NCBI GenBank assembly: GCA_965200245.1
Contig: CBDATS010000005.1
Coordinates: 320,001 to 384,000, forward strand
Reading direction: 5' to 3'
Origin: a bacterium
Lineage (GTDB): Bacteria; UBA8248
DNA: 64,000 bases
Position 1 is the stretch's first letter. Each line of letters begins with the position of its first letter. The position numbers were made by a program, and so were the translations under genes. A model generated the notes under the pieces. It worked only from the letters and a program-made list of their open reading frames with translations, did no database searches and had not been told where the DNA came from. Positions 8,954 to 64,000 of this stretch are shown here, in pieces.

Positions 8954-9545
8954 GAATTACACACTTGAATCCGCAAGTCCCAATCCCTTTATATTGCGTA
9001 CCGGCCCCAATCACCCTTTGAACATCATGCAGACGGACATCACCGTCACTTCCGGAATTTGTGTGCGGAAGTCGTCATGACTCTTTCCTGCAAGACAGGG
9101 AACGTCTTTTGCACACAGGAGGAGGGGTCATAACGGCATCATTCTGGAAATATGGCTACTTCGGCCGCCGGTTTCCCGGGAGAAGAGGGGGACTATGGAC
9201 AGGGTTCCGAGAGTCTGTTTCTCAACAGAAAAACGTCAAAAATTACCTGCTTTCCCATCGGGACATCCCATACGCTGTTCATGATGACGATGCAAAAAGG
9301 CGAAAGCGTCGGGGCATCAAACCATACTCGTTACTCCAGGACAGGAGACCCAAGTGAAATCTCTTTCCGGGATGCGCGAGCACCTGATCGGGAAGGCAGG
9401 CGACAGTGAGGAGTTCCGTGCCCGTCTTATCTCCGAACCGAGGGCCGTGGTATCCGGGGAGTTCGGAATCGCGGTGCCGGAGACTTTCAACCTGCATGTG
9501 ATGGAAGACGACGCCGAAAACAGCTATCTCGTCCTTCCGCCTTCG
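8954..9545 (+). repeat. Dispersed repeat copy 1: ~400 nt non-coding block plus NHLP leader coding region (homologous to 48281-48888)
   Basis: Shared segments, e.g. gaattaca.actt.aatccgcaagtc, ttgaacatcatgcaga, cttcggccgccggtttcccgggagaa, ctgttcatgatgacgatgcaaaaa, aaaccatactc. Confidence 0.92.
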
Positions 9546-9635
9546 CCCCGGCTCACCGAGGAAGAGCTGGAAGGCGCTCATGGCGCATATCTGGATGAGC
9601 CTGGGGACCGTATCTACGAAAAGGGAATTAGATAG
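9354..9635 (+). CDS. NHLP (nitrile hydratase-like leader peptide) RiPP precursor, core YLDEPGDRIYEKGIR
   Basis: LIGKAGDSEEFRARLISEPRAVV...SYLVLPP...LTEEELEGAHGA leader ending in a GG/GA-type site; AGGAGA RBS, GTG start. Confidence 0.88.
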   Translation: MKSLSGMREHLIGKAGDSEEFRARLISEPRAVVSGEFGIAVPETFNLHVMEDDAENSYLVLPPSPRLTEEELEGAHGAYLDEPGDRIYEKGIR

Positions 9636-44023: not shown

Positions 44024-45580
44024 ATGGAACGAGCGATAGAACATCAATTTTCAGGGCCAGCCAGTGTTTTTCAGGAGAGCCGCCTTCCTGAAACTGCTTT
44101 GCCAGTCGGCTATGCCGCACTGATCGATGCCTATGATCTGCAAGTTCCGCCCCCGCTGACCCGATGCGCCATTGGCCCCCGGCACAAGGTCTATGAGCAA
44201 GACGGTTGGCGAATCTATACACCACGCCACGAACCCGCAGCAACGCTCGAAGGTCATCTAGTCTTTGCCCTCAAATATGAAGGGCTCGATCTCGCGATCC
44301 TCAAGCGCCTGTTCCAAGTCATTCCGCTCGCAGAGCTTGAGGCCATCATCAAGGCCAAGCCTAACAGCGCCTACATGAGGCGCATCTGGTTTTTGTTTGA
44401 ATGGCTTCTGGGTCAGGAACTCAATATTCCGGACGCCAGGAACGGAACCTATGCCGAGATCGTCAATCCAAAACTGCAATGGGCCATCAAAGGAACCACA
44501 TCAACCCGGCACCGCGTGCGCAACAATCTGCCCGGCACGCGTGACTTTTGCCCTTTGGTTCGCCGCACCGACAAACTTGCCCACTTCATCGACTTGAAAC
44601 TCGACGAGCAAGCCCATACAGTCATCGGGGAAATCTCCGGCAACATCCTGGCGCGCACGGCGGCGTTTCTGCTTTTGAAGGACTCAAAATCAAGCTACGC
44701 GATCGAGGGCGAAGCGCCGCCGCATGACCGCATCCAGCGATGGGGAAAAGCGATCGGCGAGGCTGGAAAACACCCGCTCGACGAAGCCGAGTTTCTGCGC
44801 TTGCAACAGATCGTCATCGGCAATGATAATCGCTTCATCAAGATGAGGTTCCGCATCGAGGACGGATTCATCGGTGAGCATGAGCAAGGGTCGCGCATGC
44901 CCTTGCCCGATCATATCAGCGCACGGCATGAAGACTTGCCCGAATTGATGCGTGGTTTGATCGCTTTCGATCATGATTATGCCGCCGGGGTCGATCCGGT
45001 CATTGCCGCTGCGATCCTGGCTTTCGGCTTTGTCTACATCCACCCGTTCGAAGACGGTAATGGACGGATACACCGCTATCTCATCCATCATGTTCTGAGC
45101 GCGCGCAGCTTCAATCCAGCGGGTCTGGTTTTCCCTGTGTCCGCCGCGGTCCTCAATCGGGTTGAGGACTATCGCCGCGTTCTGGAGAGCTATTCCGCCC
45201 GCCTCCTGCCTCTGGTCGAATGGCAACCTACGCCGAAGATGAATGTCGAAGTGTTGAACGACACGGGCGACTTCTATCGCTATTTCGACGCAACGCCGCA
45301 TGCAGAGTTCCTGTTTGAATGTGTTCAGCACACCATTGAACATGATCTTCCCGAAGAGGCGACTTTTCTGGAACGCTACGACCTGTTCAGAACTCGCGTC
45401 GAAGCCATCACCGAGATGCCGGCCTCCATGATCGACCTTCTGTTCAATTTCCTGAAGCAAAATGGCGGGCAGCTTTCAAAGCGTGCCCGATCGGAAGAGT
45501 TCCGCATGCTGACCGACGATGAAGCCGAAGCCTTTGCGACCATCTATCAGGATATTTTCATCCCTTCGGGTGAAACTTGA
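44024..45580 (+). CDS. Fic family protein
   Basis: Canonical HPFEDGNGRIHR motif; SSYAIEGE inhibitory-type motif. Confidence 0.92.
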   Translation: MERAIEHQFSGPASVFQESRLPETALPVGYAALIDAYDLQVPPPLTRCAIGPRHKVYEQDGWRIYTPRHEPAATLEGHLVFALKYEGLDLAILKRLFQVIPLAELEAIIKAKPNSAYMRRIWFLFEWLLGQELNIPDARNGTYAEIVNPKLQWAIKGTTSTRHRVRNNLPGTRDFCPLVRRTDKLAHFIDLKLDEQAHTVIGEISGNILARTAAFLLLKDSKSSYAIEGEAPPHDRIQRWGKAIGEAGKHPLDEAEFLRLQQIVIGNDNRFIKMRFRIEDGFIGEHEQGSRMPLPDHISARHEDLPELMRGLIAFDHDYAAGVDPVIAAAILAFGFVYIHPFEDGNGRIHRYLIHHVLSARSFNPAGLVFPVSAAVLNRVEDYRRVLESYSARLLPLVEWQPTPKMNVEVLNDTGDFYRYFDATPHAEFLFECVQHTIEHDLPEEATFLERYDLFRTRVEAITEMPASMIDLLFNFLKQNGGQLSKRARSEEFRMLTDDEAEAFATIYQDIFIPSGET

Positions 45581-45644: not shown

Positions 45645-46187
45645 GTGTTTTCTCGCGGATCGGGTGGAGTACGGCGGGCCTGTTGCCACTCTTCGAGTGT
45701 GAAATTCAATGGGTTCTTTCCGCGAACCCACCGGAACCCATCTGGCAAGCGCTAGCCCTTTCCGAGAAAGAACCCCTTCGAGAGACCATTCAAGCGGTTG
45801 CTGAAATGTGGCAGGTTGATCTCTTTCATCTGTTCGCCATCGTTCCGTGACCAGACAATGTGGGCATGACGCCTGCTTGCTTTTCATGAAAGACAATGGC
45901 GCGTGGTTGCCCCTTCAAGTCGAGGTGTTTTTCGGTTTGGTTGACTGCCCTTTCGAAATCCTCCTCGCGTGCCTCCTTCCCTTGCCGAGGATTCATGCTC
46001 AGCAAAAAGAGGTGCTGGCAGCATTTCGTGCCTTTAGAGATCGCGTAGCATTCGTCCATAGCATCGCAGGGATCGCCCCTAGCACCCCCCTCAACTCGTG
46101 AACATAGACATGATCATTGTCTTCTTTGTTTATCAGGTGGTCTGCCAAGGCGCGCGCGTTACCGCGTTGCGAGCCTTTGAGGATCAT
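45645..46187 (-). pseudogene. Frameshifted relaxase (VirD2/MOBP-like)
   Basis: MILKGSQRG..LADHL..DNDHV, QPRAIVFHEK, RRHAHIVWSR (HUH) and NPLNFTLEEWQQARR spread over several frames with a stop. Confidence 0.82.
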
Positions 46188-46880: not shown

Positions 46881-47029
46881 GGTTCAGGACATATAAGATA
46901 GCGGGGTTTTGTCGGATGTTGTTTGTCAGCAGGTGCCCGGGCAGTTACAGTTTTCCTGCACAAGCACCGTCGGCTTCTCCTCCCGGCGTTCCGCCAGTGC
47001 ACAGCACTGCATTACATCAGAGGACGCAG

Positions 47030-48016
47030 ATGTCGGACCACTTCCCAAGCTTCGCCTCTGTTCTGGACGGCTTGGTCCGTTCACACATTCCGGCCCGGCT
47101 CATCGACCAACCGGGTTGGGATCGTCTGCTCAGGGGAATGTCGGGGCTGCCCAGCTTTGCGGCGGACGCGAAATTCGGCTTCGAATTCGATCTTGCGGCA
47201 CCCGACACCGGCACCGACCTTTCACTGGCGGTCCCGCCAGGCTGGCCCATGACACACTGGCTGATCGAGCGCGGCCATCGGAAAGGGGCCGATGCATCGG
47301 ACGCAGCCCTAGCAAGTTATCTCGGTGAGCTGGCGCGGCCCGGTTCCTTTCTTGCCAACCTGTTCGATGGCACGATTCTCGAGTATGACATAGACTCTGC
47401 CTCGGAAGACCGTGAGCTACCGCCTCCCGGCTTGTTCCTTTGCCTTCGCAAGGACCGGGACCAGAAGCATCTCAACGCAGGCGCCGTAGAGGGGGCGTTG
47501 GCTTTCGCCACGGCGACAGTGCCAGATCCTCGCCGCCTGCGCGTGCTGGAGACCATCTGGCAGACGTTTCCGACGGACGCCCGTTTGCGTTGGTGCGCCG
47601 TCATGTCGGGACGCAGTCCCGCCCCCCTGCGGCTGCTAATCGTCTGCCGCCGGGCGGAGATCCCCGGATTTCTCAGGGCGATTCGGCATCCCGTTCGTCT
47701 GGCGGCGGTTGAGGACGTTCTGGCGTCGATCGGGGATTTTCCGGACCGTATCTGCCTGTCTCTCGATGTAACATCGGCAGGACCGCTACCCCGCCTGGGG
47801 ATGGAGATGTATTTTGGCGGGCCAACCGACCGCGGCACGTGGAACCGGGTCATGTCGGCAATGGCAGGCCGCGGTTGGCTTCGGGCCGACAAGGGAGCCG
47901 CGCTGGCCGGATGCACAGGCAGCGAGCAATTTTTCGGCCAGGATGGCAAGCTGACGACGCTCTTCTGGGGTGTCAACCATGCCAAGGTCGTCATCGCAGA
48001 GCGGAAACCACGGTGA
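47030..48016 (+). CDS. Putative ABBA-fold peptide prenyltransferase-like RiPP maturase (3' end possibly frameshifted)
   Basis: Strand motifs FGFEFDL, ILEYDID, PGLFL, LRLLI, ICLSLDV, RLGMEMYF and VNHAKVV, with VKGY in a shifted frame; ~330 aa; upstream of an NHLP precursor. Confidence 0.5.
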   Translation: MSDHFPSFASVLDGLVRSHIPARLIDQPGWDRLLRGMSGLPSFAADAKFGFEFDLAAPDTGTDLSLAVPPGWPMTHWLIERGHRKGADASDAALASYLGELARPGSFLANLFDGTILEYDIDSASEDRELPPPGLFLCLRKDRDQKHLNAGAVEGALAFATATVPDPRRLRVLETIWQTFPTDARLRWCAVMSGRSPAPLRLLIVCRRAEIPGFLRAIRHPVRLAAVEDVLASIGDFPDRICLSLDVTSAGPLPRLGMEMYFGGPTDRGTWNRVMSAMAGRGWLRADKGAALAGCTGSEQFFGQDGKLTTLFWGVNHAKVVIAERKPR

Positions 48017-48280
48017 AGGGCTATATCGTCTGCGTCCGGCGCAAGGGGCAAGTCCGACGCCCACTCCAGAATGAACCAAATAGCCGGACCGTTTCCGCCT
48101 GTTACGCGGGCTTGACGAACCGGATGAGGTCGACCGGGTCCCCGGGATTCCACTTCGGTTTCGGGAAGCGAAGGCGAACGGGAGAGGAACGCCCATCCGA
48201 TTTTCATGAAATACGCACCGGGAACATGCTTTATTGCGATGCTGCCCTATACCAGAATATATGGCAATCTTCCTTGCCAA

Positions 48281-48888
48281 GAATTACATACTTAAATCCG
48301 CAAGTCTCAATCCCTCAATTTTGCGCGCCACACCCCAACCACATTCTTGAACATCATGCAGATGGACATCACCGGCATCTTCGGAATTTGTGTACGGAAG
48401 TCATCATGACTCTTTTCCACAGGACAGGGAATGTCTTTTGTAGGCAGGAGGAGGGGTGATAACAGCCTCATTTTGGAAATATGCTCCTTCGGCCGCCGGT
48501 TTCCCGGGAGAACAGGGGGCATACGGACGGGCTTCCGGGAGAAAGCCTGTTCCCCAACAGAAAAACGGGAAAACCATCGAAAAATTTCCTGCTTTCCCAT
48601 CGGAACATCCCATACCCTGTTCATGATGACGATGCAAAAAAACGAAAGTATCAGGGTACCAAACCATACTCATTTTTTCAGGATAAGGAGACCGGAATGA
48701 AATCTATTTCCGAGATGCGCGAGCACCTGATCGAGAAGGCAGGCGACAGTGAAGAGTTCCGTACCCGTCTGATCTCCGAGCCGAGGGCCGTGGTATCCGA
48801 GGAGTTCGGAATCTCGGTGCCGGAGACTTTCAACCTGCATGTGATGGAGGACGACGCCAAGAACAGCTATCTCATTCTGCCAGCTTCA
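48281..48888 (+). repeat. Dispersed repeat copy 2: non-coding block plus NHLP leader coding region (homologous to 8954-9545)
   Basis: Co-linear similarity to copy 1; indels not in multiples of 3 in the upstream part. Confidence 0.92.
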
Positions 48889-48948
48889 CTCAAGTTGACG
48901 GATGAACAGTTGACGTCCATCCACGGTGGAGAATGGGTCTGGCATTGA
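48697..48948 (+). CDS. NHLP RiPP precursor, core EWVWH
   Basis: AAGGAG RBS; MKSISEMREHLIEKAGDSEEFRTRLISEPRAVV...LTDEQLTSIHGG|EWVWH. Confidence 0.88.
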   Translation: MKSISEMREHLIEKAGDSEEFRTRLISEPRAVVSEEFGISVPETFNLHVMEDDAKNSYLILPASLKLTDEQLTSIHGGEWVWH

Positions 48949-49566
48949 TCGTCTGCCGCCGGGCAGACATCCTCCATAAGAAGGACGGGACACCGGTCGA
49001 CGCCAACTGGGTGGTCTCCCGACAAGGCGTGGGAACGTCAGACCCAGCCGCTGCCTAACCCGGACCCGCCGACACAGCCTGGCCCCGTGCCATTACCCGG
49101 CGTCAACTAGTGCGATCCTGATGCCGGCAGTGTCAACAACGCCGGCAAGGTCCCTCGCAGACACGATTTCCTCCATCGACATGACGAGGACCGTAACCTG
49201 TCCCCGGACGCTCCCAAGCCGGAGCAGGCCAGCACCCCATACCGTTATATCCTAGCAGGGATATGTGGACGGCGCCAGTTCCAACGCTTCCACGGCACGG
49301 CCTCGCCCTGTCATGTTGCACAACGACCACATGATGTATCTCAATCCGACGCGAAAGGGGCGATGATCGATGACCCTGGCCGCCATGTCTTGCCGATTCC
49401 CACCAATGGAGTCGATAATCGAGGCGGTTTCGATCCTGTGGCGACCGGAACCGTCTTCCGGGTTAGTTACCGACTCATCCCGACATTGTCACAGGTCCCC
49501 AAAGGTGGTGTATTGGCAACGAAAGAGGCCATGGTGCCAATCGCTCCTGCTCCGGGAGACACCGGG

Positions 49567-50082
49567 ATGACAGCCGACCACTACCGCAACCGGATGCTCG
49601 CCGCCGTTCTGGCGTTCCTGGCCCTGGCGGCTATATGGGCGGCGCGGGCCGGCGAGACGGGTTTCGGCATCCTGTGCGCCCTATGGTTCATCCTGGTTGC
49701 GATTGCGCCCGCGTGGCCCAGCTTCGGGCGCCGGACAAGAGCCTGGTGTTTTTCTGGCTATCTGGCGTTCCTCGCGCTGGCGGCAGCCGGGGCGATGCGG
49801 GGCAACGCGCCGGAATTCGCGATCATGTTCGTCCTGTTTTTCATTATCTCCGTGATCGGCGCGCTTGTAGTACGCCGACGCAAGTGGCTGCCGAAACGCG
49901 ATGTCAAGAGTCCTCAGACCATGACCATCCTTCTGGCCGTGCCCATGGCAGTAGCGGGAGGAGCAATGTGGTTCCATGAGATGGATGTCGCTCTCGTGGC
50001 TGTCGCGACGATTGTCGGCATGTCGTTCAGCCTGTTTGCCGTCGCGCCCGACCGGCCCCACGACCGTCCGCCATCCGTGTAG
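49567..50082 (+). CDS. Hypothetical 6-TM membrane protein with internal repeats
   Basis: GGGAGA RBS; repeated LAFLALAA helical hairpins. Confidence 0.65.
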   Translation: MTADHYRNRMLAAVLAFLALAAIWAARAGETGFGILCALWFILVAIAPAWPSFGRRTRAWCFSGYLAFLALAAAGAMRGNAPEFAIMFVLFFIISVIGALVVRRRKWLPKRDVKSPQTMTILLAVPMAVAGGAMWFHEMDVALVAVATIVGMSFSLFAVAPDRPHDRPPSV

Positions 50083-50305: not shown

Positions 50306-50765
50306 ATGCGCCAGGCTAACTGGTGCCAGTACAGCCGTGAAAGTCCGGCAGGAAGGAGAAGGCCAGCCATTACTTCCACCCCGAGTCATGGGCCGTCATT
50401 CGTCAAGACAGGGGTCAAGCGTTGACAGTGGCGCGTGGTGGCAGAACTATGGAAGACCAAAGAAGTACATTCCGGGATGCTGAGGTCTTTCTACTGGCCG
50501 AAGGCAGTATCCGTCCCACAGTTTTGACGAAAGGAACGGAATCCCGCGGTGTCGAAAAACCCATGTACTTACATACTACCCGAAACCTGAGAGGTTTCGA
50601 TGACATTCCGCCGTCGTGGCGGGATCGCTGAGGAAAGAATGAAACCCGTACCCGAAGATGAACGGCACGGAGAAATCAGACTCGATCTTAGCAACTGCGA
50701 AGCCGACGTACAAGGGGATGTCCTGCCCCGGCAGAGTCAAGAACCAAGCCCAAGGAGAACCTAGA
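50306..50765 (+). mobile_element. Truncated, ORF-less group II intron fragment (5' domains)
   Basis: (A)TGCGCCAGG start; gtgaaagtcc, ccccgagtcatg, aagcgttgacag, ccgggatgctga, gaaggca and gatgaacggcacggagaaatcagactc...gaagccgacgtacaaggg; no RT ORF or domain V seen. Confidence 0.62.
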
Positions 50766-53282: not shown

Positions 53283-55028
53283 TTACACCAATGGAATGGA
53301 GCGATACTCGACCAGCGCTGACCGGCCCGTAATATCGACAATGCGAATCCGACACTCGTGGCCAAAGGCATCGGTGAGACGCAACTCTTCCCCGAACAGG
53401 AAGCCGACCGGCTGCTGCCTGCCCTCGTTGATGGCGATGTTGTCAGCATACAGATAAGTACGGTCGCTTGTGTCACGTATGGGGTTCAGTCGTCCTGACA
53501 GACCAGGGACGTGTCCGGTTGCATTCGAAAAGATTACAGCGCCTCCTCCCGGAAGGGGGGCGAGTTCAATTGTCAACACTCCCTCAGCGGGTATCCAGTG
53601 CTCTTCGCAGTGTGCAGCGTATCCGGATGCAGCGACAAAAACCCTCATCGGCAATTCAGTGGTGTAGAGGTCCACGCACCCCTCGCCGTCGAAGCCGGTG
53701 GTTGCCTCTTGCCAAGTCTTGTTCGGGTATAGTACCAGCAATTTCGCGCCGGGGAGCGGCTGACCATCCGCGAATACCTTGATGGTTACAGAGTCCGGGG
53801 TATTTTGATGCGATGCTGCCGAAACAGTCAGACGAAGGTCTTTTCCATCAAGCACGTGGTATTCAGGCTCTTTCCCGCAAAGCTCCCGAGTCTCTCGAAG
53901 GATGATGCGAACACCGTCACCTCGTCGTTCCATGAAATACTGTCGTTCATGAGAGCCATGAATGCCATTCACCGCCATGCGTCCAAGTATGGAGGCAAGC
54001 GCTTCGTTGCGGGTTGCCTGGGTCTCGGGCATGGCGTCTATCGTCATTCCGTTGGGCAACTCTCCGGGCGATACGAGTTCCAGACGGTCCTCGAACATGG
54101 ACAAGCGTATCCTCCGCTCCTTCATGGCGTAATCCCGGTGCACGACGGCGTTCACAATAGCCTCGAAAACGGCACGCAAACTATACTGTGGCACGTCCAC
54201 CCGTGCTGGCATTTTACGGGCAGCAACCTGCATGTTGCTTCGCACGAACAGCATCGCGTCATCGATCTGGCGATGTAACGGACCGGTGATCTCACGTGCG
54301 TCCAACTGGCCCGATGCACGATCCGTACCGTCGTAGCGAGTTGCCGAAATGGCAGCTTGAGGCAACCATTCCTGCGGCTCCCGTGTGCAGAGCAGGATAC
54401 CGGCAACCGTGGCCCTCTGAACGCCTGCTTGGTCATTCGCCAGCAGACGAAGCTGCCGCAGGGCGGCCTGCGGGTCCGCTGCCCCCTCGGCACTGAGCAA
54501 CGAACGCCAAAGTTCCTCGTCCAAGGTGCCAAATCCGGTGTCCGGAACGGGCTGCTTGTCAAACCAGAGAAACCTGGCCTGTGACCTAAGCTGAGCGAGG
54601 CGCAATTGTTCGTCGGTGCTCATTCGTCGGGCTGAACTTCCGATTCGCCGGTAGCTTCCACCCGGGCTCTCGTGCAGAGCGTGGCCCTGGGGAATCTCTA
54701 CCAGCAAGAACGACTTGCCGTAATCGAGTTCTCGTCGGGAGATGAAGGGGTACAGAGGAGGCTTGATCGCATCCGCGCAGATTTCGACAAGCAGTCGCTC
54801 AAGTACATCCATCTGCTCGCGCGACATGCCTGGCACTTCACCCGCATCGGTGACACCACAGAGCAACACACCGCCTTCTGCATTCGCGAAGGCGGCGATT
54901 TCGTCAGCCAGATGGTCGCGGCTTGGGCTCTTTGGGCGGTTTCCAGAAAACTCGATTTGCTTGAATTCCCAAACACTGTCTTCGCCCAAGCGCAACTGGC
55001 GTTCAATGTCGGTGTCGCTGATCTTCAT
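53283..55028 (-). CDS. AlbA_2 (Schlafen-like) domain + HATPase_c_4 protein with an extra C-terminal domain
   Basis: GEDSVWEFK, IAAFANAEGGVLLCGVTD, FEAIVNAVVHRDY, DRLELVSPG and ERRGDGV; ~170-aa beta-rich tail. Confidence 0.85.
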   Translation of the reverse strand: MKISDTDIERQLRLGEDSVWEFKQIEFSGNRPKSPSRDHLADEIAAFANAEGGVLLCGVTDAGEVPGMSREQMDVLERLLVEICADAIKPPLYPFISRRELDYGKSFLLVEIPQGHALHESPGGSYRRIGSSARRMSTDEQLRLAQLRSQARFLWFDKQPVPDTGFGTLDEELWRSLLSAEGAADPQAALRQLRLLANDQAGVQRATVAGILLCTREPQEWLPQAAISATRYDGTDRASGQLDAREITGPLHRQIDDAMLFVRSNMQVAARKMPARVDVPQYSLRAVFEAIVNAVVHRDYAMKERRIRLSMFEDRLELVSPGELPNGMTIDAMPETQATRNEALASILGRMAVNGIHGSHERQYFMERRGDGVRIILRETRELCGKEPEYHVLDGKDLRLTVSAASHQNTPDSVTIKVFADGQPLPGAKLLVLYPNKTWQEATTGFDGEGCVDLYTTELPMRVFVAASGYAAHCEEHWIPAEGVLTIELAPLPGGGAVIFSNATGHVPGLSGRLNPIRDTSDRTYLYADNIAINEGRQQPVGFLFGEELRLTDAFGHECRIRIVDITGRSALVEYRSIPLV

Positions 55029-55044
55029 CTCCGTGGTGGACTCC

Positions 55045-55632
55045 AAACCTTGAAATTTTTGGCGATAGTCCTGTCCAAGCGTGTCTCCTCTGCCTGCTGC
55101 TCTCCAAATTGAGCGACGAGCCGCTTCATTTTCGCCTCGAAAGGTTTCCTGTCATCTTTTTGCGGCGGTGCGCCCACGTAGCAGCAGGGGGTGAGCACAT
55201 GCCAGCTTTTGCACCTCGTCTATCGTCAGGCTCCTGCAGAAACCGAGAGCATCGGCATACTCCTCTGCGCTCTCACTGCTTCGCCATACATGATAGGCAC
55301 AGACAATGCAGACAACCTCCTCATCCGTCAACTCACGGTAGGTGCGGTCGACCATGCGGCCGAACACGCACACTCACCAGACATCACCTCCCTGATTGCG
55401 GGATTCTCGCGCTCGATCGCCGCTATGACATCATCGACGACCTAGCCGATGACAGGCTGCCACACCTGAGTCCTGAGATGGCCCCAGCGGTCATCCGGCG
55501 GAACGCAGAAGATGTTCTCAGCAAGATACTTGCCCCCAAGTCCTCGGCAGCCTCCGCGCCCCATTCGGCGAGGACAGAAGCGCAGCGTTCCCCGAAGACG
55601 TTGGAGATATACTTGAGGAAAATCAGATCCAA
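55045..55632 (-). pseudogene. hsdM: Type I restriction-modification methyltransferase (HsdM) remnant with internal deletion
   Basis: LIFLKYISNVF..AEWG, YLAENIFCVPP..RW and VDDVIAAIERENP joined to GRMVDRTYRELTDEE..YHVWR..GFCRS; frameshifts and stops. Confidence 0.8.
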
Positions 55633-55636
55633 AACG

Positions 55637-55874
55637 TGAAAGACTATCGGCTCTGGCCCTTCCGCCCTTCAAACCGCCAGCGCGCGCAAACTCATTCATG
55701 CTCTCAATATCATATTCTCGCTTGCCAGTCGCAACATATACAACAAACCTAGCGAGTTGACTGCTATCACGTGATCTTTCGGGCTTTTTTATCATAGTTC
55801 GGAAATTATGCCACAGACATTGCATAACACGCATGTTCGGTTTTGCTCTTGTATTTTCAAACTGACACACTATC
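55637..55874 (-). mobile_element. IS1-like element end with truncated small passenger ORF
   Basis: GATAGTGTGTCAGTTTGAAA terminus-like sequence, then MIKKPERSRDSSQLARFVVYVATG...RAGGLKGGRARADSLS. Confidence 0.45.
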
Positions 55875-63050: not shown

Positions 63051-63135
63051 ATCGAGCCCTCACTCTTTGTGACCATGCGCTGTCGTGACGTGGCCTCACT
63101 ATACCACGATTCATTCGTACGTACACAGGGAATCC

Positions 63136-64000
63136 TCAAATCTTCCTGAGCGTCGGGATGAGTTCGTCCGAGATCATTCGCATGCTGTGGAGCGCCGTGG
63201 AAAGCGGCATTCCCGCCCAGTGGGTACGGATGACGAGGTGATTCATCCCGACTTCCTCCCAGTAGGGGCGAAGCTGCTCGTAACACTCCTCGGGTGAGCC
63301 GAGGATGAAGCGATCCTTCAGGAGATCGTCGAATTCCTAGTCGAACGTCTCATCCTCGGGCATGGCGTCGTCCTGCCCCCATTTGGCGTAGTCCTGGTAT
63401 TTGCCGAACAGATAAGGCCCCGCCATTTCGAGGGCGGTCTTCTTGTCACGGCTGCAGAACACTTCCTTGATGCACGGGAATTCCCTGGGAAACGGCTTGC
63501 CGCAGCGGTCCAGCTCCGCACGGCAGAGCGCCATCTGCCTCCTGATGGTCGCCGTGGTCGAATGGGGGTTGATGAACCAGTTGTCCCCGATACGTGCGGC
63601 GCGCTCGATGGCCTTGTCGTTGTTCGCCGCCACCCATATCGGCGGATAAGGCTTCTGTACGGGGCGGATGTTCATTCGCACGCCGTCGAGCTTGCAGACT
63701 TCATCCTCCCAAGTGACTTCCTCTTCCGTCCAGAGTCGCTTCACGAGTTCGAGTCATTCTTCGAAACGGCGCACGCGCTGTCCTTTCGGCACGCGAAAGG
63801 CGTCGAACTCCGCCTCGCGATAGCCCAGCCCGATTCCGAACACGAAGTTTCCCCGGCAGATCACGTCCATCGTCGCCACCGTTTCAGCCACATAGACCGG
63901 GTTGTGGAGGTTGATAAGCAGGATGCCGAGCCCAAGCGTCATCTCGCCCGCCTCGGCCTGCAGGCGCGCCAGGAAGGGCACGATCTGGAGTTGCTTGTTG
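63136..64000 (-). pseudogene. LLM-class (luciferase-like) monooxygenase, interrupted and running off the window edge
   Basis: HNPVYVAE, GLGYREAEF, RPVQKPYPPIW and FILGSPEE; in-frame TGA at 63754-63756, TAG at 63337-63339 and a frameshift near 63250. Confidence 0.75.

Follow-up and report, generated by a model that had tools for sequence, protein, structure and literature searches.

A frameshifted gene for a probable peptide Trp prenyltransferase beside an NHLP precursor with a five-residue core, and its relatives in uncultured bacteria

Peptide prenyltransferases of the ABBA type that depend on a leader first reached the literature in 2024-2025, with cyanobacterial clusters as their source. 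MppC, an ABBA enzyme of the mpp cluster of Moorena producens, prefers GPP and attaches geranyl to C5 of the second Trp; it requires the whole Nif11 leader and favors a lanthionine-cyclized core over a linear one (PMC12715784). The core of MppE is ACWRWSG, according to the available part of PMC11791876. NctPC, as far as the available text of PMC13290415 describes it, is an ABBA enzyme with little similarity to the cyanobactin enzymes; it geranylgeranylates a RiPP Trp and has a cyclase domain; NctPC and the steromaze maturases are also mentioned in the available part of PMC13647313. The cyanobactin F enzymes (PagF, PatF, LimF and DciF) act leader-free on macrocycles (PMC12715784). The kind of enzyme considered here, a leader-dependent ABBA peptide Trp prenyltransferase, is already known. 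DMATS-type enzymes such as MpnD, CymD, 6-DMATS and FgaPT2 take free Trp or small molecules as substrates, and ComQ and PalQ are assigned to the trans-IDS class. In sponge microbiomes NHLP genes are reported to be common (PMC9426513; 10.1101/2023.06.09.544420) and NHLP clusters to be abundant and cryptic (PMC9426513; 10.1101/2023.06.09.544420; PMC12426817), as stated in the parts of these sources at hand; the word "prenyl" does not occur in the main texts of the three, in those same parts. Among sponge precursors, those of the srp type are 252-bp NHLP genes whose core, LCCCW, is brominated at Trp (available part of 10.1101/2023.06.09.544420).

The locus described here lies in a 64-kb stretch of bacterial DNA, the whole of which we call the window. 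It shares with MppC a predicted soluble ABBA barrel, a candidate Trp target in the core of a large-leader precursor, and a W-x-W core (EWVWH in the window and, as given in the available part of its source, ACWRWSG for MppE), and distant members of the enzyme family are found in clusters that resemble mpp in their LanM, Nif11 and oxygenase genes. In contrast to MppC, with its Nif11 leader and cyclized core, the branch of relatives found at 12 genomic loci (L001-L012) combines NHLP leaders with short linear cores that are nearly free of Cys, lacks LanM, and carries arrays of up to 14 precursors. The srp proteusins resemble the window precursor in their 252-bp NHLP gene, their LTxEQL motif and their Trp-bearing five-residue core, but the LCCCW core is modified by a YcaO enzyme and a brominase, as described in the part of the source available, and neither enzyme is encoded in the window.

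An earlier note on this DNA had also suggested a ComX-like signal. The substrates of ComQ (ComX) and PalQ are short linear peptides prenylated on Trp, as the window peptide may be; however, these systems have a trans-IDS fold and no NHLP leader, whereas the window enzyme is an ABBA barrel and no receptor was shown for its locus. The enzymes that prenylate ComX belong to the trans-IDS class (a class set out in PMC13290415), a fold other than that of the window enzyme, and the suggested likeness to ComX is not supported. Membership in the ComX/ComQ group was rejected on the same ground of fold.

The enzyme gene and the precursor cassette in the window

The features of the locus, together with those of a second NHLP cassette, are listed in Table 1.

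Table 1. Features of the enzyme locus and of the second NHLP cassette, in window positions
Feature	Position	Strand	Remarks
Prenyltransferase ORF, ABBA barrel, 328 aa	47030..48016	+	stops early at frameshift, without last barrel strand
Last-strand remnant (K-G-Y segment), shifted frame	48004..48066	+	tblastn of P0004, P0005, P0011 and P0013
Conserved upstream region of NHLP cassette	48281..48696	+	indels relative to second copy break frame
NHLP (proteusin-type) precursor, 83 aa	48697..48948	+	leader of 78 aa with LTDEQL...GG at its end; EWVWH core, 48931-48945
Second NHLP cassette (upstream region and precursor gene 9354-9635, from GTG at 9354)	8954..9635	+	leader ends GA, core YLDEPGDRIYEKGIR

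The protein of about 330 amino acids described in the earlier note is represented by an ORF of nearly that length. A ribosome-binding site, GAGGA, is present ahead of it at 47020-47024, and its start lines up with the starts of its relatives, the closest being P0004 (78% identical) and P0005 (66%). Among the motifs that had been listed for this protein, FGFEFDL, LEYDID, LSLDV, LGMEMYF and HAKV are found in the ORF, but KGY is found in another frame, where the last segment of four relatives (Table 1) matches the window from 48004 onward. The earlier reading had therefore crossed a frameshift near 48004, and the KxY strand that it gave to the window enzyme lies outside the ORF. In the model of P0004, which is intact, residues 327-339 form an additional final strand; this strand is missing from the model of the window ORF, leaving the barrel of the window's own product incomplete. 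Two residues of the lost segment are nearly invariant in the family: of 107 aligned members, 106 have K at position 330 and one has R, and all 107 have Y332, in an alignment that excludes the window protein and the five further members, among 113 aligned, that also lack this end. Because the frameshift drops the last barrel strand with its K and Y, the assembled gene most likely makes no active enzyme.

Whether the break exists in the organism is a separate matter. The shifted frame stays open to 48459, whereas close relatives stop about 18 residues past KGY; a frame free of stops for about 150 codons makes a second lesion likely. A piece of a group II intron is located near the locus, and another gene in the window has two in-frame stops; together these look like real decay. 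Since the recognizable genes of the window are otherwise mostly whole, indel errors appear to be uncommon in it. These observations argue against the possible, though in our view rather doubtful, alternative that the frameshift arose in assembly only and that the organism itself has a whole gene, whose enzyme prenylates EWVWH and other dispersed NHLP cores with an exporter encoded elsewhere. That alternative draws on the position of the missing base in a short G run beside an A run, on the retention of all remaining near-invariant catalytic candidates in a protein 78% identical to an intact relative, and on the five other members without the end motif, which may be assembly errors in the database. 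It departs from our preferred explanation solely in the state of the window copy. We consider real decay, rather than a one-base assembly error, somewhat better than even.

The precursor gene scores 73.1 bits against the TIGR03793 leader_NHLP model (cut-off 50.9), and a double-glycine end directly precedes the core; the short Trp-rich core with its WxW pattern is as the earlier note had read it. The same five residues are found in P0159, an independent database protein that shares 90% identity with the precursor, indicating that the EWVWH core is not an artefact of assembly. We have also compared the near precursors P0160-P0165, two of which look frameshifted and were left out of the count of clean cores; Trp is present in all four clean cores (P0161, P0162, P0164 and P0165; 68-90% identical). 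The enzyme gene had been placed directly upstream of this precursor gene and in the same orientation. Gene order and strand are as stated, but there is a gap of 680 bp between the genes, some 420 bp of which are the precursor's own conserved upstream region.

The same upstream region is found ahead of the second NHLP gene, 39 kb from the first and with no prenyltransferase beside it, and the two regions are 81.6% identical over 414 nucleotides (about 420 bp shared). Judged from its frame-breaking indels, the region is probably non-coding promoter or leader DNA. It has no match in Rfam, its folding z-score of -1.04 is no better than that of shuffles, and scans for promoters and terminators were at chance level. 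The leader is also shared between the two precursors, but the second core, YLDEPGDRIYEKGIR, contains Tyr and no Trp. A second copy 39 kb away that shares both upstream DNA and leader suggests that the precursor is a dispersed cassette. In the 64-kb window we found no C39 exporter, no cluster-type methyltransferase and no cytokinin-dehydrogenase-like flavoprotein, and likewise no halogenase, YcaO or LanM. The self-contained two-gene system that had been proposed does not agree with these findings, given the dispersed cassette and the exporter-peptidase, often with additional enzymes, that intact loci encode. An intact, closed two-gene unit, as assembled, was rejected on account of the frameshift, the dispersed cassette and the lack of an exporter in the window. 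The pair in the window is a satellite of a larger system, and its enzyme gene is a broken copy encoding what is probably a Trp prenyltransferase of the MppC/NctPC type.

Fold and family of the enzyme

The AlphaFold2 model of the window protein has a pLDDT of 94.5. When it was compared with 48,161 solved chains, all 19 chains with Z of at least 5 were ABBA prenyltransferases, and the next fold reached 4.9. The best match was MpnD (Z 14.9, rmsd 4.5, 284 residues aligned). MpnD is also the best VIA-align match of the intact relative P0004 (Z 17.4, rmsd 4.4, 297 aligned), for which CymD (17.0), an NphB-type enzyme (15.5), PatF (12.9) and PagF (11.4) were further matches. For both models, the chains at Z of at least 8 are exclusively ABBA enzymes. 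Foldseek placed the His prenyltransferase FunA first for the window model and PagF first for the intact relative, with identities of at most 17%. At the level of predicted models, the ABBA barrel is established for the window protein and its intact relative, and the fold that the earlier note had guessed proved right, all top structural matches being ABBA prenyltransferases. The DMATS-type enzymes give the best VIA-align matches (Z 16-17.4) and share Trp or indole as acceptor, but they are only 8-14% identical and have no precursor genes. There is no solved structure closely related to the window enzyme family.

Sequence searches place the protein outside the annotated families. Pfam and NCBIfam returned no family for the window protein and none of relevance for any of 113 members, and a search of PDB sequences gave no match below E 0.2, either with the single sequence or with the 113-member alignment. 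The family nevertheless comprises 310 representatives at E of 0.001 or less; with no Pfam or NCBIfam model, it is overlooked by automated annotation. The residues E52, D63, E118, D120, R195, R201, H317, K319, K330 and Y332 are conserved in it. By conservation and known ABBA chemistry, these acids and bases are predicted to serve in binding Mg2+ and diphosphate. A search with the family alignment, a weak test, found no longer, fused forms among 8000 scored candidates; P0064, a partial fusion of a cyclase with the enzyme, was among the earlier matches of the family search. The window protein has no tblastn match on plasmids, and residues W336 and F340 of MppC did not map by position onto the cyanobacterial members. 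Prediction of a complex of the window enzyme with its own precursor scored 0.02 against a mark of 0.32, in a run for which controls were not folded, and is given no weight here.

The cyanobactin F enzymes, to which the earlier note had likened the protein, share the ABBA fold and peptide acceptors, and PagF is the Foldseek top for the intact relative. They differ in having no sequence match to the family and the lowest Z among the ABBA matches (12.9 and 11.4 for PatF and PagF vs 17.4 for MpnD), and in their neighbors, which are here NHLP precursors and C39 exporters. The structural ranking of PagF is mixed, first by Foldseek for the intact relative and in the lowest Z range by VIA-align. Membership in the cyanobactin F family was rejected, there being no Pfam, NCBIfam or PDB match and no cyanobactin cluster neighbors such as PatA/PatG proteases or a PatE-type precursor. 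By fold, gene context and published descriptions, the enzyme family is probably that of MppC and NctPC. Like them, its members have an ABBA fold and little similarity to cyanobactin enzymes, and they are encoded with Nif11 or NHLP precursors with Trp cores, except for the Trp-free cores of Nostoc. We are fairly confident of the overall explanation in which the window protein belongs to a family, so far without annotation, of peptide prenyltransferases that are soluble ABBA barrels.

Gene neighborhoods of the relatives

One peptide pattern was scanned over species genomes; 113 stretches matched, 12 of which encode relatives of the window enzyme (28-31% identity). The hosts are MAGs of Dehalococcoidia, Nitrospirales, Acidimicrobiia, Latescibacterota and Gemmatimonadetes and one unclassified bin, taxa that we take to be typical of sponges. 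In a quick tree of 65 rows chosen from the matches, which excluded L011, L015 and L016, 11 of the locus enzymes form one clade (SH-aLRT 98) separate from that of the window. With 11 enzymes in a single clade and all loci drawn from one pattern, they represent one spread lineage and not 12 independent cases. The gene neighborhoods of the window's own clade are known from the window alone.

NHLP genes are found at all 12 loci, 49 in total and up to 14 per locus, and the one nearest to the enzyme gene lies within 170 bp in eight loci and within 3.6 kb in all. Cores could be parsed for 48 of the 49 genes, giving 44 distinct cores with a median length of 9. Trp is present in 40 of these, where its frequency in long ORFs would predict 4.9, and the four cores without Trp all contain Tyr. 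Phe and His, in contrast, occur at background levels (14 cores vs 11.9 expected and 9 vs 10.1, respectively), and Cys is present in only one. Short Trp cores such as HHEWV and LYYGW are among those observed. The earlier note had proposed to look for precursors beside homologs, and they are there at every locus; these cores also lend strong support to its suggestion that Trp is the acceptor. The lanthipeptide reading of the window was rejected, as no LanM is found in the window or, within the DNA examined, at L001-L012, and Cys is confined to one core in 44.

An ABC exporter set is also present at 12 of 12 loci, with a C39 peptidase domain at 11 and an HlyD-like gene at 11, in flanks of up to 8 kb; the sequence examined for L002 ends inside the exporter, and three loci are shortened by contig ends. 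A SAM methyltransferase is encoded at six loci, and at five a flavoprotein that combines a FAD_binding_4 domain with a cytokinin-dehydrogenase domain, while L007 and L011 have neither within the DNA examined. L008 carries a squalene-hopene-cyclase-like gene, a weak match (E 8.5e-4, below the curated cut-off), and the N-terminus of P0064 matches this gene (E 1.8e-10), which indicates a cyclase-enzyme fusion. In flanks of up to 8 kb at L001-L012, blastp found no LanM or radical SAM, and Pfam no LanM, YcaO or radical SAM. No cyanobactin proteases were seen at these loci, and a single S8 peptidase gene is present, at L002.

These counts bear on the alternative that the barrel is not a peptide prenyltransferase, but prenylates a small molecule or transfers or cyclizes otherwise, with the Trp cores as targets of the methyltransferase or the flavoprotein. 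The best structural matches are indeed small-molecule indole prenyltransferases, at 6-17% identity, and a common fold does not prove function. However, the barrel is encoded at all 12 loci, whereas the methyltransferase and the flavoprotein are encoded at only six and five, and the ABBA enzymes of such clusters act on the peptide (PMC12715784). We regard this alternative as improbable.

Separate support for the link between enzyme and precursor, beyond the 12 loci, comes from the plasmid branch of a distant member, P0128. Four of its four plasmid relatives adjoin Nif11/NHLP precursors, three of them, the distant members L013, L014 and L016, with LanM. Seven of eight cores at the Azospirillum B510 locus are Trp-terminal and the Pseudanabaena core has Trp at its end, and none of the five cores seen at the Nostoc locus contains Trp. 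By analogy, this LanM-associated branch looks like the home of MppC and NctPC.

Taking the genome and plasmid loci together, the enzyme family is found beside NHLP/Nif11 precursors in 16 of the 16 loci seen (12 and 4, respectively). This regularity stands against the idea that a mobile or duplicated unit, the EWVWH cassette, landed by the enzyme gene, its core being modified in trans, for example by an srp-type Trp halogenase, or left unmodified. The solitary second copy 39 kb distant and the 680-bp gap containing the cassette's own upstream region would fit such a unit, as would the srp precursors, which in the available part of their source are likewise 252-bp NHLP genes with LCCCW brominated at Trp. 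Yet EWVWH resembles the short Trp cores at the relatives' loci (HHEWV, LYYGW), it lacks the Cys run of srp, and neither a halogenase nor a YcaO gene was found in the window. We consider this idea unlikely.

Proposed pathway and significance

In an intact member of the family, the NHLP precursor would be made on the ribosome and bound by the enzyme through its large leader, as suggested by MppC. The acids E52, D63, E118 and D120 and the bases R195, R201, H317, K319, K330 and Y332 would hold Mg2+ and the prenyl diphosphate, and the allylic cation would be added to the indole of a Trp in the core; MppC suggests, by analogy, C5 of the second W in W-x-W. For EWVWH, the second Trp would be the guessed site on the same analogy. 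Methylation or flavin oxidation might follow prenylation, and the C39-peptidase ABC exporter would then cut at GG and secrete a short lipidated peptide. It is probable that many precursors share a single enzyme. Fold, family, neighborhoods and Trp bias are results of the analysis; catalysis, leader binding, attachment site and chain length are inferences.

This pathway, with the window as a broken satellite locus of an MppC/NctPC-type family, is the explanation that we think quite probable as a whole. The Trp-free cores count against it (4 of 44 at the 12 loci, the five of Nostoc and that of the second precursor in the window), and so does the preference of MppC for a macrocyclized core, since the cores of the relatives are unable to form lanthionines. 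Further points against it are the derivation of the 12 loci from one spread lineage, the reported commonness of NHLP genes in sponge microbiomes and the break in the window gene.

A broader reading, which we offer tentatively and hold somewhat below even, is that a cluster exchanged among at least five phyla of uncultured bacteria uses one leader-guided ABBA enzyme to prenylate Trp, and at some loci Tyr, in up to 14 short, hypervariable uncyclized cores per locus, after which a flavoprotein, a methyltransferase or a cyclase tailors the residue. Of the 12 loci, five encode this flavoprotein, six the methyltransferase and one a terpene cyclase, and in this reading these would oxidize, cap or cyclize. 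If it is true, the products would be combinatorial linear lipopeptide signals or defenses made with new prenyl-tailoring chemistry, with EWVWH among the smallest members.

The family-level result is solid, and the window copy, broken and isolated, matters less; interest lies in the intact branch, whose enzymes seem to act as prenyltransferases on whole sets of short linear cores, which suggests a class of small lipid-bearing peptides that has been little studied. If the branch prenylates Trp in linear cores of nearly any sequence, it could provide a portable, leader-guided tool for peptide lipidation, and products could be assigned to many NHLP clusters that seem to be without a modifying enzyme. 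We found no description in the literature of a LanM-free NHLP-array branch with a cytokinin-dehydrogenase-like partner; Hubrich et al. 2024 (Chem) and the MppC supplement, both of which survey related clusters, may already show such loci. The neighboring flavoprotein could represent new prenyl chemistry. With NctPC, as described in the available part of its source, the family shares the ABBA fold of low cyanobactin similarity; NctPC uses a C20 chain and differs in its cyclase domain, the window protein being single-domain with no cyclase nearby. The cyclase-like neighbor at L008 and the fusion P0064 echo the domain composition of NctPC.

Core peptides and probable cluster transfer

Precursors adjacent to the prenyltransferase gene at three genome loci (L009, L010 and L011) have cores in which Tyr is the only candidate acceptor of the two aromatic residues Trp and Tyr (VDVYPV, IDYDPNIS, IDYEPNIS and GVEMYRF). 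These Tyr-only cores beside the enzyme suggest that some members of the enzyme family have switched to Tyr as the acceptor in place of Trp. At L011 the enzyme gene itself is split. The cores HHTGLWG and GSHKGYYW recur identically at three further loci (L002, L003 and L005) across a Nitrospirales and Dehalococcoidia genomes, and this identity suggests that the cluster was recently passed across phylum boundaries.

Plasmid clusters and partner enzymes

Three of the four plasmid loci carrying distant relatives of the enzyme are associated with LanM, among them the following two. In Azospirillum sp. B510, eight NHLP precursors, seven of them Trp-terminal, adjoin a member of the enzyme family together with TfuA, YcaO, LanM and an efflux protein, which makes this locus, carried by a cultured strain, a candidate cluster for a lanthipeptide that is both prenylated and thioamidated. 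In Pseudanabaena galeata, the gene for the enzyme-oxygenase fusion sits within a LanM/Nif11 cluster, and the existing annotation of the fusion protein names the oxygenase only.

Other arrangements were found among relatives of the enzyme. The database protein P0064 looks like a cyclase-prenyltransferase fusion, and P0137, at 718 aa, appears to carry two tandem prenyltransferase domains. At L006, the cytokinin-dehydrogenase-like gene is separated from the precursors by an oxidoreductase-like gene, whose product may be a further tailoring enzyme.

Features of the related loci and of the window
Feature	Position	Strand	Remark
NHLP cluster, Azospirillum sp. B510 plasmid pAB510a	L016:1047-18073
Enzyme fused to 2OG-Fe(II) oxygenase, P. 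galeata plasmid pPg_03	L014:8986-10779
Terpene-cyclase-like gene	L008:15058-16983		adjoins flavoprotein (cytokinin-dehydrogenase-like) gene
FAD-dependent oxidoreductase-like gene	L006:10604-12559	+	652 aa; weak matches
Fic-domain gene, AlbA_2/RecG-C gene, short ORF pieces	window 44024-45580, 45999-46187, 53283-55046, 55100-55640	+, -, -, -
Hydrophobic protein	window 49363-50082	+	up to 239 aa; directly after NHLP precursor
84-nt internal repeat of its gene	window 49608-49691 / 49761-49844
Group II intron D1-D4 fragment, RF02005	window 50340-50561	+	97.8 bits
Luciferase-like monooxygenase gene	window 63130-64000	-

Surroundings of the enzyme in the window

The hydrophobic protein encoded after the precursor has no family match in Pfam or NCBIfam, and no counterpart is present at the 12 related genome loci. 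No intron-encoded protein was found near the group II intron fragment. Short ORF pieces around the enzyme locus, which we take to resemble the start of a relaxase and the end of a type I methyltransferase, have no match in Pfam. With these pieces, the Fic-domain gene and the AlbA_2/RecG-C gene, the locus has the appearance of a small island in decay. The two in-frame stop codons in the luciferase-like monooxygenase gene indicate that genes of the source genome are truly decaying.
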